A stretch of 64,000 bases of DNA from a virus. A model generated the notes under the pieces. That model made no database searches, had not been told where the DNA came from, and was given only the letters and a program-made list of their open reading frames with translations. The translations under genes and the position numbers were made by a program. The stretch's first letter is position 1. Every line of letters begins with the position of its first letter. Where the stretch lies: the IMG/VR virus record IMGVR_UViG_3300020469_000001, positions 41,273 to 105,272 of that record; one strand, written 5' to 3'. Positions 12,454 to 20,984 of this stretch are shown one piece after another.

Positions 12454-12704
12454 GATATATGTCAGAATTTGAAAGGCACGATAGAAAACTTCGTAAAATA
12501 AAAAATTGGTTAACTGTATTAGCTATGCTTTTAATTTTTATAGGATTGCAAGGGTTTTTACCCTTGCCACGCCTTGAATCTACATTTTTCATATTTACAG
12601 GTAATGCCTGTATTTTTTGGGTTGCTATGGTAGATGAAGATAAAAGATTATTTCTTTTTACTTTGTTGATGATAATTGCACAAATTTCTAGGGTGGCATT
12701 ATGA
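12450..12704 (+). CDS. small membrane protein
   Basis: Hydrophobic helices; ATGA overlap. Confidence 0.65.
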   Translation: MRYMSEFERHDRKLRKIKNWLTVLAMLLIFIGLQGFLPLPRLESTFFIFTGNACIFWVAMVDEDKRLFLFTLLMIIAQISRVAL

Positions 12705-13243
12705 CTTTTAGAGGAATGAAAGCGTATCTATATCTTAAACTTATAACTCGATTTTGTGATAGACTTTTTAATATAAATCAGAAAATCAGAATTTATGATT
12801 TAGATGGAACTATAATAGATTCGAGCCACCGAGCAAAGCATAATGAATATGGAAAATTAGATTTAGACCATTGGAAAGAAAACAATACTAAAGAAAATAT
12901 TTTTAAAGATGATTTGCTTCCTATGTATTGGCAACTCGTAGCCGATTATAAGAATGGCGATTATATTATTTTATGCACAGCTAGAGAAATGGGAAAATGG
13001 GATTTAGAATATTTGCATACAATGGGTATTTATTACGATAAAATTTTATGTAGAAATGAAAATGAAAATACTGCCGATTGGAAATTAAAAAGGCGTTTAC
13101 TAAATCCATATTTTAATTTGAAGCCATTTAGAAATATACAAAAATATTTCTATGATGATAACGATTCTAACCTTTTAGCCATTGGCGATATGGGGGCGAC
13201 TTGTTGCAACGCTAAAGAATGGAATAACAAATTTAGCAAATAG
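12701..13243 (+). CDS. HAD-superfamily phosphatase (PNKP/5'-nucleotidase-like)
   Basis: IYDLDGT motif I, CTAR motif II, K, FYDD motif IV. Confidence 0.85.
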   Translation: MTFRGMKAYLYLKLITRFCDRLFNINQKIRIYDLDGTIIDSSHRAKHNEYGKLDLDHWKENNTKENIFKDDLLPMYWQLVADYKNGDYIILCTAREMGKWDLEYLHTMGIYYDKILCRNENENTADWKLKRRLLNPYFNLKPFRNIQKYFYDDNDSNLLAIGDMGATCCNAKEWNNKFSK

Positions 13244-13255
13244 AAAGGGGGAACA

Positions 13256-13284
13256 GGGGCGAGAAATCGCCCCACTTTTTTTTT
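13256..13284 (+). terminator. intrinsic terminator
   Basis: GGGGCGA-GAAA-TCGCCCC followed by T-run. Confidence 0.85.
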
Positions 13285-13369
13285 CAAAAAAAGACTTGAC
13301 TTTTACCCCAAAATCCTGTAAAAAAATCCACAAAAAAACTTGTCACAAAACTTGACTTTTTCTCGTGCG

Positions 13370-13428
13370 TGGTTTAAAATTTGTTTATCTAAACAGATAA
13401 ACCCGAAGGGCTAGCAAATTTTAAACCA
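13370..13428. repeat. T/Y-shaped palindrome, copy 2 (inverted relative to copy 1)
   Basis: Stem TGGTTTAAAATTTG/CAAATTTTAAACCA enclosing TTTATCT-AAAC-AGATAAA and CCC-GAA-GGG. Confidence 0.9.
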
Positions 13429-13632
13429 AGAACGATTTATCAACCTTCACAAATCCATAACACGAAACGCCAAAAATGTCAAGGGTTAATTTTCAAAAAT
13501 TTTGTGATATAATCACTAGGTGAATTTACTTTATAAATATAGAATCGTCATGGAATTAATCAGAACTGTAATTCCTGTTATTATGGTCATATTACAGGGC
13601 ATAATTATTTTTAAATTATTTTCATAAATCGC

Positions 13633-13661
13633 TTGACAATAGGGGCGAAATCGCCGATAAT
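13633..13661 (+). promoter_or_regulatory. sigma70 promoter
   Basis: TTGACA-17-GATAAT; spacer contains inverted repeat GGCGA/TCGCC. Confidence 0.7.
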
Positions 13662-13667
13662 ATTTAT

Positions 13668-13940
13668 ATTGATTGAGAGGGAAACAACCGAAAGGGAAAC
13701 GAACTCGACAGACTAGGAAAGACAACAGAAACATAGACACAGAAACCCACTCTCTAAGAATCGAACTCGCAGAACTTCAACCACCTCCGAGACTGAGTCG
13801 CTGACAAGGTCAACAGGGAATGAACTCAAAATCAAGACAGGCTAGGAAGTCTCGACCAACTAGCCGACCGAGAGGGAAAGGACTCATACTCCGAGATTAT
13901 ATCAAAAGAGATTGTTGGACTTCCCCTCTCACTTTTTTTT
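13668..13940 (+). ncRNA. candidate ~270-nt small RNA
   Basis: Promoter upstream, no ORF, 5' TGAGAGGGAA pairs with 3' TTCCCCTCTCA, then T8. Confidence 0.55.
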
Positions 13941-14093
13941 CACCGATTTTTTCGGAGGACTGCCCCTGCCCGAGATTTGAGAAATCCTGACGCGCCCTGC
14001 GCCAACGCAGTGCAGTGTCGAAACGAAACGTGGTGCGGGTGCGCCAAAGGCAGTGCAGTAACGAAACGAGAGGTCTGCGCAGAGCGATCCGAC

Positions 14094-14113
14094 TTATCCA
14101 CAGGTTATCCCCA
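14094..14113 (+). promoter_or_regulatory. tandem DnaA boxes
   Basis: TTATCCACA (perfect, 14094) and TTATCCCCA (14105). Confidence 0.65.
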
Positions 14114-14217
14114 AGTCTCTGTGGGTATCCCGCCCCCCACCCTATTATTGTATCACACTTTGTCGCTCTTGTCAAGTCTTTTTGAAAATAAAAAACCCGC
14201 TTTCGCGGGTTCTGTGA

Positions 14218-14370
14218 TTAGGAACAGATGTCGATTAATCTTTTGATTGTTTCTGCATTCGCTCTCTCAAGACTGTTTAAGAAACCTTTGTCGGCTCTGA
14301 TTACCACCTCTAATTCTGCAACTAATGTTGCTTTAGTTTTTACAACTTTTTTCGCTTTTTCGTTTTTCAT
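14218..14370 (-). CDS. small protein resembling the C-terminal domain of the A2/D3-like proteins
   Basis: TKATLVAELEVVI...LNSLERA; AAGGAG RBS; terminator hairpin at 14191-14211. Confidence 0.65.
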   Translation of the reverse strand: MKNEKAKKVVKTKATLVAELEVVIRADKGFLNSLERANAETIKRLIDICS

Positions 14371-14762
14371 TTCGTTCTCCTTATTTATAGATATAATTAT
14401 ACGCACATTTTCTAGGATATCAAGAACTATTTTACATTATTTTCAGAAATTACCACAAAACACCAAAAAACCCGCCCCAACTGCCTGAAAGCCCCTGTTT
14501 ATGCGGGTTTCACGGGCACGCTCCGCGCCAAACGCCCAGTGCAGTATCGAAACGAAGTGCGAAAGTGAAGTGCCAAAGCGAAGTGCTAAAACGAACTAGT
14601 CTATAATTAGGTTATTTATAGTATATCATACATTTGGGCGGGTGTCAAGGGAATTTTGCACAAATTTGCGTTTTTTGCGACAAATCGCAACGAAGGTTGG
14701 TGGTTTCGCGTCCCGCCCCCCGAATCAAATGCTGATAAATTATAAATAAATCACATTTATTG

Positions 14763-14892
14763 TTGACACAAGTGATAAAAGCGAATATAATATATACATA
14801 TTAAAAAGGAGGCAAAAGTGAAATACAAGAAAACAATCAAATCAAAGTTTTTTCATAAAATCCTTGACAATAGAAACAAAAGTGGTTATAAT
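14763..14892 (+). promoter_or_regulatory. two tandem sigma70 promoters
   Basis: TTGACA-17-TATAAT at 14763-14791 and 14864-14892. Confidence 0.85.
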
Positions 14893-14922
14893 ATACTATA
14901 TAAAATATTTGGGAGAATACTA

Positions 14923-15234
14923 ATGGCAAACGCTAAAAATTATACAGAAGAAATGGTCAGTCAAATGACCGAAGCATACTCTGCTAACCCTAGTAGAGAA
15001 ACAGTAGACGAACTTGCTCAAACTTTCGGCAAAACAACTAGAAGTATCATTGCTAAGTTGTCAAGAGAAGGAGTATACATCGCTCAACCTAGAACTACAA
15101 AATCTGGTGAACCAGTTGTAGCAAAGTCTGAGTTAGTTGCTCAACTCGAAGCACACTTTGGAATTGAACTACCTACACTTGTCAAAGCAGGTAAGCAAGA
15201 CCTACAAAGATTGGTCGACACAATCGCATCTTAA
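14923..15234 (+). CDS. T5 A2/D3-family DNA-binding protein (possible longer form from GTG 14818)
   Basis: NYTEEM...ELAQTFGKTTRSIIAKLSREGVY HTH-like N-domain; paralog of 19782..20090. Confidence 0.75.
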   Translation: MANAKNYTEEMVSQMTEAYSANPSRETVDELAQTFGKTTRSIIAKLSREGVYIAQPRTTKSGEPVVAKSELVAQLEAHFGIELPTLVKAGKQDLQRLVDTIAS

Positions 15235-15284
15235 TTGTTGAGGAGTGATTACCCTAAGTAATCAATTTTGAAGAGAGTATCTAT

Positions 15285-15350
15285 CTGAGGTAAGTGTCTA
15301 CGGAAGCACACCTAAAGAGGAAGTAGCAAGTTCGACTCTTGCACCTCAGA
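15285..15350 (+). ncRNA. tRNA-like element with truncated anticodon arm
   Basis: Acceptor CTGAGGT/ACCTCAG, D arm GTGT-CTACGGAA-GCAC, T arm GCAAG-TTCGACT-CTTGC; anticodon arm only CCT-AAAG-AGG. Confidence 0.7.
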
Positions 15351-15399
15351 TATCTCTGCTCTGCTCAAAGTTTAGTCAGTAAAAAAATCGCTTTTTCTA

Positions 15400-15428
15400 T
15401 TGACAAATCCTTAAAAAGCGAGTATAAT
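15400..15428 (+). promoter_or_regulatory. sigma70 promoter
   Basis: TTGACA-17-TATAAT. Confidence 0.85.
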
Positions 15429-15551
15429 ATATTTATATTCAAAAAAAGGAAAACCCACTGGGACTGGGCATCTGGAAGTGATGACATAGTTAACACTTAG
15501 AATTAAACTGTTTGCCCTACCCACCTTTCAAGAAATAAATCAAAATTTTTC

Positions 15552-15580
15552 TTGACAAATGGTTAAAAAGTGGATATAAT
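15552..15580 (+). promoter_or_regulatory. sigma70 promoter of large ncRNA
   Basis: TTGACA-17-TATAAT. Confidence 0.85.
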
Positions 15581-15586
15581 ATACTT

Positions 15587-16525
15587 ATATTCAAAAACAA
15601 AAAAGAATAGCAAAACACGGAGTGAAGTACGCCATTAAAGATACTTCTAGTGTGGCGACACGATAAAATGACTGCCGAACGCTCGTTAGATATTGAGAGA
15701 AAGCGTTAGATGAGTTCAATATCCGCTTTTGAGAGTCAGATACAGACATATCCTCCGCAGCAGGAAGCGAGTGTATCTTCGATTGACTTGTCGGTAAAGG
15801 GAGTATAAAAGCACGATAACTGCCAGTAATTCCTACACTAAGTCCCTTTTTCGGGCAGTAGGTAGTAAGCGATTTCGTTGACTGCTCTCCAAGTAGTGTA
15901 TTGGCACTATAAAGTCCTGAGGATTAGTATGAATTACACAGGTAAAACAGTAAATCATACCGTGATTGACGCGTAGATACATCGAGAATATCACGCAGAG
16001 TGAGGAAACCACGCTGATTCTATACCACACCCTCAACCGTTTCGGTAGTAGGAAGTAGAGCATAGAACGAGTAGTAAACCAGTTTGACATTTCAGTGTGC
16101 AAGGTATGAGATAATTTCAAAACCCACCAAGTAATGAGAGCATAAATGCAAACTTCAAGGGCAAGGAAGTTAGAGGAACATATGATGTACTTTAGTTGAG
16201 ACTTCCACGCTACCTGCGAGTGAGAACCCACGCGGCGATTCAGGTTTACCTGTCAAAGTAGTAGGGACATTGGGGGCAGTTAGCAACTTAGAGGAAATAG
16301 ACACCGATTGATGAGTGAGGAAAACAATCGAGTGAGCAAGTGAAAGGTCGATACAACCTCTATTCCAAGTATCGCACTTGCAGTTAGGCATACACTATCG
16401 TTGAGGTTTCGAGTAAAGCAATCCGAGATAGAGAGTAATGCCAAGTTGTAGACCGATATCAGTCTGACAGCGATAGTAAAAAACAAATAGTTTTTTCGAG
16501 GGAACAGCGCGTTCCCTCTTTTTTT
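15587..16525 (+). ncRNA. large (~930 nt) highly structured non-coding RNA candidate
   Basis: Consensus promoter and terminator bound a region with no sense-strand ORF; many local and long-range helices. Confidence 0.75.
16498..16525 (+). terminator. intrinsic terminator
   Basis: GAGGGAAC-AGCGC-GTTCCCTC followed by T7. Confidence 0.9.
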
Positions 16526-16575
16526 GTCTCAAATAAGTTAACATCAAAATTTCTTATGTTAATTTAAAATAGTTC

Positions 16576-16604
16576 TTGACAAACAAGATAAAAGTGAGTA
16601 TAAT
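16576..16604 (+). promoter_or_regulatory. sigma70 early promoter
   Basis: AAATAGTTC-TTGACA-17-TATAAT. Confidence 0.85.
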
Positions 16605-16732
16605 ATATGTATCAAAAGAAAAAGGAAACCACATTTTCCGACATAATGAGTGTGGGGGTCGTAACCGAAAGCGCAGGGGAGGAGTGAAATGACTCCCCAC
16701 CTAGATTAACTATTATTTATAAGGAGGGCATC

Positions 16733-16951
16733 ATGCCAGCAAAATTTAAACCAAGTGAAAAGATTTACAAGAGAGGAGTTCCAGCAAGAAACTTGCCAGA
16801 AAGACACTTCTATCTAAAGAACACTCCTAAAGAGGAACTGTTCTCAGAAATTAACAAGCACAATGTCAAACCAAAACAAAGACAAAAGTGCCTAAACGAA
16901 CTCGCTAGACGAGGCGTGGAAGTAGTGTGGACTACTAAGGAGAGTGTGTAA
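16733..16951 (+). CDS. hypothetical protein
   Basis: AAGGAGG RBS. Confidence 0.75.
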   Translation: MPAKFKPSEKIYKRGVPARNLPERHFYLKNTPKEELFSEINKHNVKPKQRQKCLNELARRGVEVVWTTKESV

Positions 16952-17085
16952 TGAGAGCATGGGGAACAAATCATGTGTCGCACAAGAAGAAAACTTCACA
17001 GGGCAACGGCAGAGGCACATTCAGTATAAATATGAACAAGAACAAAAAGCGTTCTTACAAGAAATACAGGGGGCAAGGCAAGTGA
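16951..17085 (+). CDS. small basic protein (KKTSQG...KKYRGQGK type)
   Basis: Read manually; AAGGAG RBS; TAATG coupling. Confidence 0.65.
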   Translation: MRAWGTNHVSHKKKTSQGNGRGTFSINMNKNKKRSYKKYRGQGK

Positions 17086-17258
17086 AGACAGCAATGCTAA
17101 CACAACAGGACTTTCAAGAGTTCAAAAAGAAAGTGGCAATTCTAGGTAGAGCAGGTATTACATTGGATTATACAGTAGCAAAACCAAACCACAAAAAAGT
17201 AAAGATAACAATGCGTACACCAGTGGACGCACAAAAGTGGGACGAGGTGTGTGGATGA
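17082..17258 (+). CDS. hypothetical protein (GTG start; 3' part of track ORF 16944..17258)
   Basis: GTGA overlap with the preceding gene. Confidence 0.55.
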   Translation: MKTAMLTQQDFQEFKKKVAILGRAGITLDYTVAKPNHKKVKITMRTPVDAQKWDEVCG

Positions 17259-17428
17259 AAAAATTACTAGACGCAATGTGGGAACCGTTTGACAGCGAAG
17301 ATGCAACAGAGTGGTTCCTCATACTGTTCGGTTATACAGTATTATTCTTTATCCTATTGGGTGGAGTGATAGAATGGATTTAACAGTATTATTATTAGTA
17401 GCAATGTTCTTAGTGTATATGTATTTCA

Positions 17429-17665
17429 ATGACAGGGATGACTGGCGTGGGTAATATAATACGCTTTCCTATTGAAAGGACTGAGATACAACGCTTAGTG
17501 AGAGATTTGAGGCATCAGGAAGAAGAAATCAAACTGTGCCTCGATGACCTTGAAGCATTAAATGAACATATAGTCGAGTTAACAGCAGAGTATGAATCCC
17601 TGTTAAATCGAGTATGTGAACTAAATCAAATTAATTTAAAAGGAGAAAGTGATGAAGAAAGGTAG
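17429..17665 (+). CDS. hypothetical coiled-coil protein
   Basis: NIIRFP N-terminal motif; heptad repeats. Confidence 0.6.
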   Translation: MTGMTGVGNIIRFPIERTEIQRLVRDLRHQEEEIKLCLDDLEALNEHIVELTAEYESLLNRVCELNQINLKGESDEER

Positions 17666-17933
17666 TATGCAATACGACCAGTTTGGTCGCAAGAGAAAAG
17701 TATCGCATCTTTACAAGAGTAAGAAAGCGACGCCTCAGTTTGCGAAACAAGCAAAGAAACAATTTAAAAAGGAAGAAGATATCTACGCCAGTGCACCTAT
17801 TGGGGAATATGCTGTGCCTGTAGATAATTCATATAAACAAGACATCAGTAAGCAATATACGGTATCGATTGCTTACAACAAAGGTGCTTATCAAGTGATA
17901 CCAAAAGGAGAAGTGAAAGACATTGGCAAGTAA
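17649..17933 (+). CDS. conserved phage hypothetical protein
   Basis: C-terminal YTVSIAYNKGAYQVI...DIGK motif; AAGGAG RBS. Confidence 0.7.
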   Translation: MMKKGSMQYDQFGRKRKVSHLYKSKKATPQFAKQAKKQFKKEEDIYASAPIGEYAVPVDNSYKQDISKQYTVSIAYNKGAYQVIPKGEVKDIGK

Positions 17934-18180
17934 ACATTATAAAGTGGGAATGAAAGCAAATGGTAGCACAATAGTAGCAATTCGATACCCCGAAGGCACT
18001 TCTAAGAAGTATGAACATTGGGAATGTCCTGCACGAAACAGTGTAGAACACATGGATGTCGAATTAGCAGATGGTAGAGTGTTATCCAGTAAGGATTTGA
18101 TACTTGGAAACAAGTTCAAAGTCGAAGATGTAGAGAAAATAGACAAATTTATATCTAAAATTAGTGGAGGTGTAGCATAA
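17923..18180 (+). CDS. hypothetical protein
   Basis: ORF track; overlapping chain. Confidence 0.6.
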   Translation: MASKHYKVGMKANGSTIVAIRYPEGTSKKYEHWECPARNSVEHMDVELADGRVLSSKDLILGNKFKVEDVEKIDKFISKISGGVA

Positions 18181-18614
18181 TGAGTAAAATTAATGACTAT
18201 GCTAGGTTTGTTGATAGTTGTACATCGGCAACAAGTAAAGATACTAGCAAAATGTGTGATAGAATGGACTATCTACGAGGAAACTACACAATGCAAGGTG
18301 GTGAAGTGCTAGAACAAGAAGTAGATATGGCAAGATTGATGACTGCCCTGATAGGAATGATGGCAGAGAGTGGAGAATTTGCAGAAGTAGTGAAGAAAAA
18401 GGTATTTCAGTCAGATAGCAAGTTCAAAAGCGATGAGATTTTCCATATGAAACGAGAACTCGGTGATGTATTATGGTATTGGGTTCAAGGATGCAAAGCA
18501 TTAGGTTTTACACCTGATGAAGTAATGGATGAAAACATTAGGAAACTAGAGAGTAGATATCCGAATGGTTTTGAAGTAATTAGAAGTGAAGTCAGAGAAA
18601 AGGGGGACATATAA
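18180..18614 (+). CDS. MazG-like nucleoside triphosphate pyrophosphohydrolase
   Basis: ESGEFAEVVKK and RELGDVLWY motifs; NIRKLESRYP. Confidence 0.88.
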   Translation: MSKINDYARFVDSCTSATSKDTSKMCDRMDYLRGNYTMQGGEVLEQEVDMARLMTALIGMMAESGEFAEVVKKKVFQSDSKFKSDEIFHMKRELGDVLWYWVQGCKALGFTPDEVMDENIRKLESRYPNGFEVIRSEVREKGDI

Positions 18615-20750: not shown

Positions 20751-20984
20751 TTAAGGACGAACTCTCATTGACAATTTCTTTTTCATAGCGAGTTGTAGTT
20801 CCTTTCGTTTGTCCAACTCTCGTGAACGCTTCCTGTAATTGTTCATTTGATTTCTTTTAGCATTGGGTTTTTCGTAGTATTCTTTCTCTCTGCAACGCTC
20901 TTTGATTTCTGCTCGTTGACATTTTTTACGGAATATACGAAGTCCTTTCTCGAAGGACATGCCTTTTAGATTAACGCTGGGCAT
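20751..20984 (-). CDS. rpsU: ribosomal protein bS21
   Basis: MPSV...FEKGLRIFRKKC...REKEYYEKP bS21 signature; GGAGG RBS. Confidence 0.88.
   Translation of the reverse strand: MPSVNLKGMSFEKGLRIFRKKCQRAEIKERCREKEYYEKPNAKRNQMNNYRKRSRELDKRKELQLAMKKKLSMRVRP

Follow-up and report, generated by a model that had tools for sequence, protein, structure and literature searches.

A probable new family of large structured non-coding RNA encoded by uncultured marine phages distantly related to T5

To our knowledge, folds that are both complex and conserved are rare among bacterial or phage RNAs near 1 kb, the known cases being GOLLD, ROOL, OLE, HEARO and a few others. Here we analyse a transcription unit at positions 15587-16525 (+ strand) of a 64,000-nt stretch of viral DNA (the window; bases 41273-105272 of the 105,272-bp IMG/VR virus record IMGVR_UViG_3300020469_000001), which very probably forms a gene in its own right, encoding a large structured non-coding RNA (~0.9 to 1.1 kb) of a previously undescribed family. 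Among the described systems, GOLLD is phage-encoded, ~0.8-1 kb long and often located beside tRNA genes; it contains many helices and pseudoknots, its 3' region being universally conserved and its 5' region less so, and one member comes from a marine metagenome, downstream of a tRNA-Met (PMC12286853). ROOL is found in phages and prophages near tRNA islands and has a pseudoknotted fold, a poorly conserved linker and no known protein partner (PMC12286853). Both GOLLD and ROOL form RNA-only nanocages, as revealed by cryo-electron microscopy, and the purpose of these cages is unknown (PMC12286853). For OLE RNA, sequestration of bS21 has been proposed (PMC12286853).

The marine RNA resembles GOLLD in being phage-borne, ~1 kb long, pseudoknotted, divided into one conserved and one variable half, and tRNA-adjacent in relatives. 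However, its conserved half is 5' and its variable half 3', the reverse of the arrangement in GOLLD; it matches no Rfam model; and its carriers are T5-like marine phages rather than prophages of Lactobacillales or mycobacteria. T5-like phages are a group known as virulent. With ROOL it shares a phage-encoded origin, a tRNA-type locus and a complex pseudoknotted fold, and it differs from ROOL in its marine habitat, in lacking a match to an Rfam model, and in having a variable part made of recurring structured modules instead of a disordered linker. The length of ROOL is roughly 580 nt compared with ~1 kb for the marine RNA.

Given that it is borne by a phage, is ~1 kb long, lies beside a tRNA gene or tRNA relic and has conserved and variable halves as in GOLLD (PMC12286853), the RNA could be a divergent member of a known large RNA family (GOLLD, ROOL, OLE, HEARO, raiA, RNase P RNA, tmRNA or a group I/II intron). 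We consider this highly improbable. Apart from the inverted order of the halves, a cmscan search with all 4227 Rfam 15 models gave no gathering-score match in the window, and the same models returned tRNA only in 13 related loci. When the threshold was relaxed to E <= 10 over positions 13000-17500, nothing relevant was found in the unit, with two sub-threshold matches both falling at the terminator. Neither ARAGORN nor Rfam gave a match here to tRNA, tmRNA, RNase P RNA, group I/II introns, self-cleaving ribozymes or riboswitch aptamers, and we found no description of this RNA in the literature. As there is no Rfam 15 match, the RNA is not a member of GOLLD, ROOL, OLE or another curated family. 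The initial annotation had proposed either a GOLLD/ROOL-like RNA or a new giant class of non-coding RNA, and it is the latter half of that proposal that holds. The RNA thus falls into one broad category with GOLLD and ROOL, yet is unrelated to them by every test available. An independent family of this kind would tell whether giant ornate RNAs are a general phage strategy. It is distinctive in its different fold, in its occurrence in T5-like marine phages and not in prophages, in its tRNA-type locus and in its presence in ocean metatranscriptomes of several studies.

The unit is bracketed by its own transcription signals. The initial annotation had reported a perfect promoter at 15552-15580, a strong terminator at 16498, four copies of GAGTGAG (15998, 16218, 16313 and 16330) and an absence of sense open reading frames (ORFs) over ~930 nt. 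All four claims were confirmed, and the core observation of a non-coding unit of ~940 nt between promoter and terminator stands. A 12/12 match to the promoter consensus is expected by chance ~0.01 times per 64 kb (calculated), and four of the 10 GAGTGAG matches in the whole window fall within the unit, where ~0.1 would be expected per 939 nt. The unit is present in a single copy in the genome, and its GC content is 0.43-0.44 compared with ~0.30-0.37 upstream. It is organised as follows (L numbers refer to related loci):

15552-15580, + strand: proximal sigma-70 promoter of the RNA, TTGACA-17-TATAAT, 12/12 match, kept in 36 full-length relatives.
15587-15631, + strand: A-rich 5' leader, varying in length and sequence among relatives (alignment A1).
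15632-16025, + strand: pseudoknotted 5' core of ~390 nt, from alignment A2, RNAalifold and pair counts with controls.
16026-16477, + strand: variable modular 3' domain, from module maps, clustering and compensatory changes against L004, L301, L017 and L068.
16478-16496, + strand: A/U hairpin AAAAAAC-N5-GUUUUUU just 5' of the terminator, kept in the window-type relatives L004, L301, L017 and L068.
16498-16525, + strand: intrinsic terminator, an 8-bp stem (16498-16518) followed by T7; the stem sequence differs among relatives with complementarity retained.
16576-16604, + strand: next perfect promoter, which starts the downstream early operon.

We examined the coding potential of the unit on both strands. 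On the + strand, ORFs with a start codon reach 30-32 aa at most, and frames read from stop to stop do not exceed 41 aa. Every + frame is rich in all three stop codons, and reading any single stop codon as sense leaves at most 80 codons open. Open frames on the + strand are as long as expected from shuffling (70 vs 70 aa). Comparison with L004, which is 84% identical, revealed indels of 8, 2, 1, 10, 9, 10, 3, 1, 1, 5 and 1 nt, and the 147 mismatches were distributed over the codon phases as 50/47/50, with no 3-nt periodicity. On the opposite strand, the unit contains ORFs of 132 (15833-16231), 73 and 68 aa that were absent from the initial annotation. Relatives likewise have antisense open frames, of 59-219 aa, whose average length exceeds that in mononucleotide shuffles (107 vs 81 aa). 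Part of this scarcity of antisense stop codons is attributable to the purine-rich (57%) + strand, but the antisense frames still exceed composition-matched shuffles. They would favour a protein-coding explanation, in which the unit encodes a small + strand peptide, an antisense product such as that of 15833-16231, or a protein read in another genetic code. This explanation is extremely improbable because the antisense frames are conserved neither in position nor in frame, their translations have no Pfam match, many of the indels against L004 would break a frame, and compensatory changes in base pairs explain the conservation of the unit. Taking frames, indels, codon phase and Pfam matches together, there is no conserved reading frame on either strand.

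Covariation is strong in the 5' core. RNAalifold, applied to an alignment of 40 distinct sequences over window positions 15632-16025 (alignment A2), predicted 46 pairs, 31 of them with compensatory (double) changes. Long-range and crossing helices were added by our own scan for covarying stacks, resulting in a curated model of 55 pairs in 14 helices. In this model, 96.8% of 2191 cells pair, compared with 78.2% in shuffles and 30-46% when the partners were slid by 1-3 columns. Compensatory changes were seen in 39 of the 55 pairs, and the covariation score of the core was 0.524 against 0.187 in shuffles, with none of 500 shuffles reaching it. The helices include the following:

15650-53/15658-61, + strand: helix P1.
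15679-82/15703-06, + strand: helix P2.
15689-93/15719-23, + strand: helix PK1, which crosses P2.
15735-37/15745-47, + strand: helix P3, whose loop is the 5' strand of P4 (crossing).
15738-44/15772-78, + strand: helix P4, 7 bp, every pair of which covaries.
15751-53/15763-65, + strand: helix P5.
15779-83/15790-94, + strand: helix P6.
15787-89/15891-93, + strand: helix PK2, which uses the P6 hairpin loop as its 5' strand (crossing) and is contiguous with P7.
15800-05/15888-90, + strand: helix P7.
15895-99/15904-08, + strand: helix P8.
15921-25/15953-57, + strand: helix P9.
15961-63/15982-84, + strand: helix P10.
15997-16002/16010-15, + strand: helix P11.
15998-16014, + strand: P11 hairpin GAGUG-AGGAAAC-CACGC, the most conserved element, with an A-G mismatch in its stem; it serves as the search handle for the family.

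PK1, P3 and PK2 thus represent three pseudoknot-type crossings. Pairs of the G-U type are frequent (34 at columns 59:87 and 27 at 171:178, for example) and would be A-C on the opposite strand, indicating that the + strand is the RNA strand. Cumulatively, these results establish that the core fold is maintained by compensatory base-pair substitutions. The ~40-sequence alignment already provides a covariation-backed secondary structure of the core, and the RNA is directly testable in vitro.

The relatives behind this alignment were gathered in several ways. We fetched 84 related viral loci via the downstream 214-aa protein and the upstream phosphatase, and blastn and nhmmer searches with the RNA gave collinear same-strand matches in ~25 of them, with identities from 100% to ~67%. 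Scanning of viral contigs with the most conserved 16-mer (from the P11 hairpin), followed by screening with a profile of the 5' part, raised the number to ~42 distinct 5' cores, all on the same strand and all from uncultured marine phages. The whole unit could be delimited in 36 relatives, where a consensus promoter is followed by 905-1586 nt, a T-tract and the next promoter. A single gene order is seen throughout 35 loci, running from the D5-like gene through a tRNA or relic, the RNA, the 72-aa protein, small genes and MazG to the 214-aa protein. A metagenome scan with a window-type 3' motif gave 21 stretches, among which L301 was the sole new divergent homologue and L303 was nearly identical to L004. 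In bacterial genome contigs, at least 120 stretches contained GTGARGAAACCACGCY, and none among the matches listed fits the hidden Markov model (HMM) of the 5' core; on that ground nothing indicates that bacterial genomes carry the RNA. When a covariance model of the first 148 core positions (R1) was run on 58 further loci, it recovered, besides the window itself, just L031, which is a truncated copy, and a weak match in L012. Within the range of these searches, the family occurs only in one clade of uncultured marine phages, which are distant relatives of T5.

The spread of these relatives bears on whether the unit is a functionless transcribed remnant, either of a decayed tRNA array or of a spacer between strong early promoters. 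All tRNA genes have been lost from the genome and a tRNA relic lies upstream; in addition, evolution of the 3' half is rapid, and nothing but the layout and one small sequence island is retained in more distant relatives. Against this, the 55 core pairs have been kept through compensatory change over ~40 lineages in which the neighbouring 214-aa protein is ~36-81% identical to that of the window, GC content is raised across the unit, and neither ARAGORN nor Rfam detected a tRNA-like piece inside it. A remnant is hence highly unlikely.

We then asked whether the unit is represented in RNA libraries. In six marine metatranscriptome runs, 65-77% of the words sampled from 15400-16700 were recovered; the unit accounts for 72% of this stretch. 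Over 12500-18500 we compared four runs, representing four studies, and each study yielded one mismatch-free contig of 846-936 nt (15554-16483, 15554-16471, 15630-16483 and 15627-16472), with most flanks uncovered. The unit is therefore present as a discrete contig in the RNA libraries of four studies. The 3' ends of these contigs lie within 12 nt of one another, where DNA runs continue, and this shared stop is a weak hint of an RNA boundary. Similarly, the starts at 15627 and 15630 in two studies, the latter adjoining sequence recognised as Illumina adapter, give only a hint of a processed or otherwise defined 5' end. Two further observations were set aside: the contig depths of 3289 (unit) and 16.5 (16799-17503) in run X15, which are unusable for ranking genes and were not taken as expression evidence, and a low-depth joint of 15772 to 15997, whose shorter side is 20 nt and which came from a short variant contig.

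The contigs also bear on the possibility that the locus functions as DNA, for example as an origin of replication, a signal for packaging or for stopping injection, or a ColE1 RNA II-type primer, with the transcript being incidental. The locus is heavily promoted, as are transcription-activated origins. By contrast, covariation that tolerates G-U on one strand only is an RNA signature, the unit has a dedicated terminator and an RNA-sized contig in four RNA studies, and no repeat or iteron structure was seen in it. A DNA element is very improbable on these grounds.

The fold that emerges from covariation differs in part from the one first proposed for the unit. The complementary segments named in the initial annotation are all present. 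Its pseudoknot stands in a shortened form, as two helices do cross, whereas the outer pairs of both helices fail. In one of them, GATAT 15689-15693/ATATC 15719-15723, five of the proposed 8 bp hold and all 5 show compensatory changes; the other, ACGC 15679-15682/GCGT 15703-15706, is kept in 86.8% of cells and is nearly invariant. The four long-range helices proposed with it were not upheld. Perfect long-range complementary 6-, 7- and 8-mers number 81, 22 and 5 in the unit compared with 82, 20 and 4.7 in dinucleotide shuffles, so that such pairings occur at chance frequency. The proposed helices also clash with supported local hairpins: CTGTCA 16250 sits within the conserved module B hairpin, which is missing at that site in L301 and L017, and both AAGTTGT 16443 and TGACAG 16465 overlap a local hairpin (16445-53/16462-71) whose stem has changed in a compensatory manner across three lineages (window GTTGT/ACAGC, L017 GTTAC/GTAGC and L068 GTCAC/GTGGC). 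Furthermore, three of the four long-range helices lose pairs, without compensation, through sequence differences in L004. The GCAACTT/AAGTTGT pairing could form in three of four lineages. We conclude that the long-range helices cited for an ornate fold are not the real structure.

In contrast to the 5' core, the 3' domain differs greatly among relatives. The 3' halves cluster into 8 dissimilar groups, and the window-type 3' half is common only to L004 and its near-twin L303, with partial sharing by L301, L017 and L068. The usual order of modules is P11 hairpin, B, C, I/F, D, E/G, H, J and terminator; in the window, C and D precede B. The local structures recognised here are as follows:

16165-70/16201-06, + strand: local hairpin.
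16237-16255, + strand: module B, a hairpin (GAUUCA-GG-UUUA-CC-UGUCA) whose internal loop is conserved and non-Watson-Crick.
16305-10/16325-30, + strand: local hairpin.
16336-42/16375-81, + strand: local hairpin.
16349-54/16369-74, + strand: local hairpin.
16395-99/16427-31, + strand: local hairpin.
16445-53/16462-71, + strand: local hairpin.

Compensatory differences from relatives were found in the hairpins 16305/16325, 16349/16369, 16395/16427 and 16445/16462 as well as in the terminator stem, so that the 3' half has a real, if roughly outlined, fold. Among 22 distinct instances of module B, covariation is seen in the closing helix, and GG/CC at the apex changes to GU/AC; the site of the module differs among relatives and is once inside the 5' core (L029). 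The 3' domain is thus a fast-evolving mosaic of autonomous structured modules that are gained, lost and moved between sites, and it constitutes a natural experiment with exchangeable parts. A recurrent GGGGCAG module was also considered as a pairing partner of the conserved CUGCC of the 5' core, and this pairing was rejected because its 5' side varies without compensation.

Upstream of the RNA, a second set of features was found:

15273-15366, + strand: tRNA-like relic, recognised from alignment, with a T-arm AGTTCGACTCT the same as that of the relatives' tRNA-Glu and an incomplete or reduced anticodon arm.
15400-15428, + strand: upstream sigma-70 promoter, the first of a tandem pair, perfect (12/12 match).
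15429-15551, + strand: inter-promoter segment ending in an A/T-rich stretch that abuts the -35 hexamer, from an alignment of 15 relatives.

In three relatives, a tRNA-Glu(UUC) gene lies ~30 nt upstream of the tandem promoters (L006:39-113, L013:2216-2290 and L033:6741-6815), and the relic in the window occupies the same place. ARAGORN and Rfam called no tRNA at the relic, and ARAGORN found no tRNA gene in the window or in the whole 105-kb genome. These findings fit the earlier remark that the unit sits where a tRNA block would be expected. As no + strand terminator was found between the perfect promoter at 15400-15428 and the RNA, the unit is served by tandem promoters; most relatives likewise have a second promoter ~120 to 340 nt upstream of the RNA promoter. 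The inter-promoter segment represents a small conserved unit or else serves as an alternative leader. A module, GATAACAGACCAATTTGATGGTAGCAAC, is common to this segment and to the large-RNA 3' domains of L063, L071 and L024, indicating that separately promoted RNAs of this island draw on a common set of modules. The 105-kb genome has 16 perfect TTGACA-17-TATAAT promoters, and the 1.9 kb around the RNA (window 14763-16604) contains five of these on the + strand.

How might such an RNA act? Because its promoters are consensus sigma-70 promoters, it would be transcribed by the host RNA polymerase, probably in large amounts, and the location of the unit among T5-type early promoters, just past pre-early-like genes, suggests expression early in infection. 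The RNA would then act through its fold as a stable architectural RNA rather than serving as an mRNA, antisense regulator or cis-acting element. Non-Watson-Crick modules at varying hairpin tips, together with recurring short motifs, may form docking surfaces for other copies of the RNA, for a protein or for the ribosome. The likeliest role is that of an RNA produced early in infection as a stable scaffold or decoy. By analogy with what has been shown for GOLLD and ROOL, it is possible that the RNA is a self-assembling or multi-RNA scaffold; it may equally be a decoy whose repeated modules sequester the ribosome or a protein of the host or phage. We rate the two about equal and leave the remainder to functions not yet imagined. 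More tentatively still in its details, one can picture a new giant ornate class of phage RNA, with a fold unrelated to GOLLD and ROOL, as the main product of an 'RNA island' at a tRNA-type site. Its core might nucleate a higher-order particle, either as a homo-oligomer or with module-sharing RNAs of the island, and its 3' modules might dock a host machine (the ribosome or an RNA-processing or defence factor) during early takeover; we hold this picture as a speculative possibility.

Several points weigh against a stand-alone gene for an early architectural RNA. The minimum free energy of the whole RNA is not significantly below that of shuffles (z = -1.37). The curated model was partly derived from the alignment used for counting, which inflates the percentage of paired cells, though not the compensatory counts or the slid controls. 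The window-type 3' domain is known from ~5 sequences only and its fold is just sketched. Contigs from RNA libraries give no strand, true ends or level, and DNA carry-over into these libraries is possible. Two of the contigs start at 15554, upstream of the predicted start at ~15587, so that the predicted transcript start is provisional and read-through from the upstream promoter is likely. Finally, expression timing, abundance and every step of the mechanism are inferred.

Two smaller RNA systems offer further points of comparison. The pRNA of phage phi29 is a phage-encoded structured RNA of ~170 nt that serves as an architectural homo-oligomer in the late packaging motor. The marine RNA is five times larger and lies among early-type promoters, and we detected no similarity to pRNA in sequence or structure. 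The marine RNA resembles the CsrB/RsmZ sponge RNAs in repeating GAGUGAG four times, in its recurring modules and in the conserved AGGAAAC loop of P11, which contains GGA. It differs in that most of its GGA triplets appear to be in stems or purine-rich linkers and not in regular hairpin loops. The sole weak match to the PrrB_RsmZ model (E <= 10) is at 13131-13281, outside the unit, with none inside.

The phage that carries the unit was characterised from its genome. Its DNA polymerase is ~45% identical to those of T5-like phages of enterobacteria, and DNA of the window was found in marine viral and seawater metagenomes; the carrier is an uncultured marine phage and a distant relative of T5. Searches against cultured phages were empty both for 15400-16700 (blastn against 50,697 records) and for the syntenic 214-aa protein (tblastn), and so no cultured relative or host can be named. 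Genes for a HAD-type phosphatase and a D5-like DNA-binding protein lie upstream of the RNA unit, and a MazG-like gene lies downstream. The gene that directly follows the RNA is:

16733-16951, + strand: gene for a Lys/Arg-rich, basic protein of 72 aa, the first gene of the downstream early operon.

This protein directly follows the RNA in all 35 loci checked, with identities of 37-88%. Its predicted fold is confident (pLDDT 87.9); it has no PDB match at E <= 0.001 and falls into no Pfam or PHROG family, and for want of such relatives we assign it no RNA-binding function. At ~4 kb downstream of the RNA, the phage also encodes a bS21 homologue (20751-20984, - strand; it matches Pfam PF01165 with 34.9 bits, the cut-off being 27), a likeness to OLE in view of the bS21 sequestration proposed for that RNA. 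By position only, the 72-aa protein and the bS21 homologue are candidate partners of the RNA.

ORF-free units of 1.15-1.3 kb occur at the syntenic position in more distant loci (L038:5095-6387, L039:6598-7938, L045:6778-8025, L077:4647-5855, L079:1330-2539 and L081:1838-3028, as well as L027 and L063), where the tandem promoters are kept. These GC-enriched units share only a small island around GGUGAUUGACGCGUAGAUAC, their remaining sequence being almost wholly different. Covariance model R1 does not detect them and they were not counted as members; they are possibly further large-RNA families.

A separate observation concerns a promoter-driven unit at 13673-13940. In the X15 RNA run, a 169-nt contig reads 13763-13817 and then straight into 13679-13792, through a junction CAACAGG|GGGAAACAACC that is not present in the DNA. 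The length of 169 equals 139 + 30 and fits a closed 139-nt cycle in the assembly graph if a word length of 31 is assumed for the assembler. This back-join of 13679-13817 could reflect RNA that is circular or permuted, a variant phage with a tandem duplication, or a template switch during reverse transcription.

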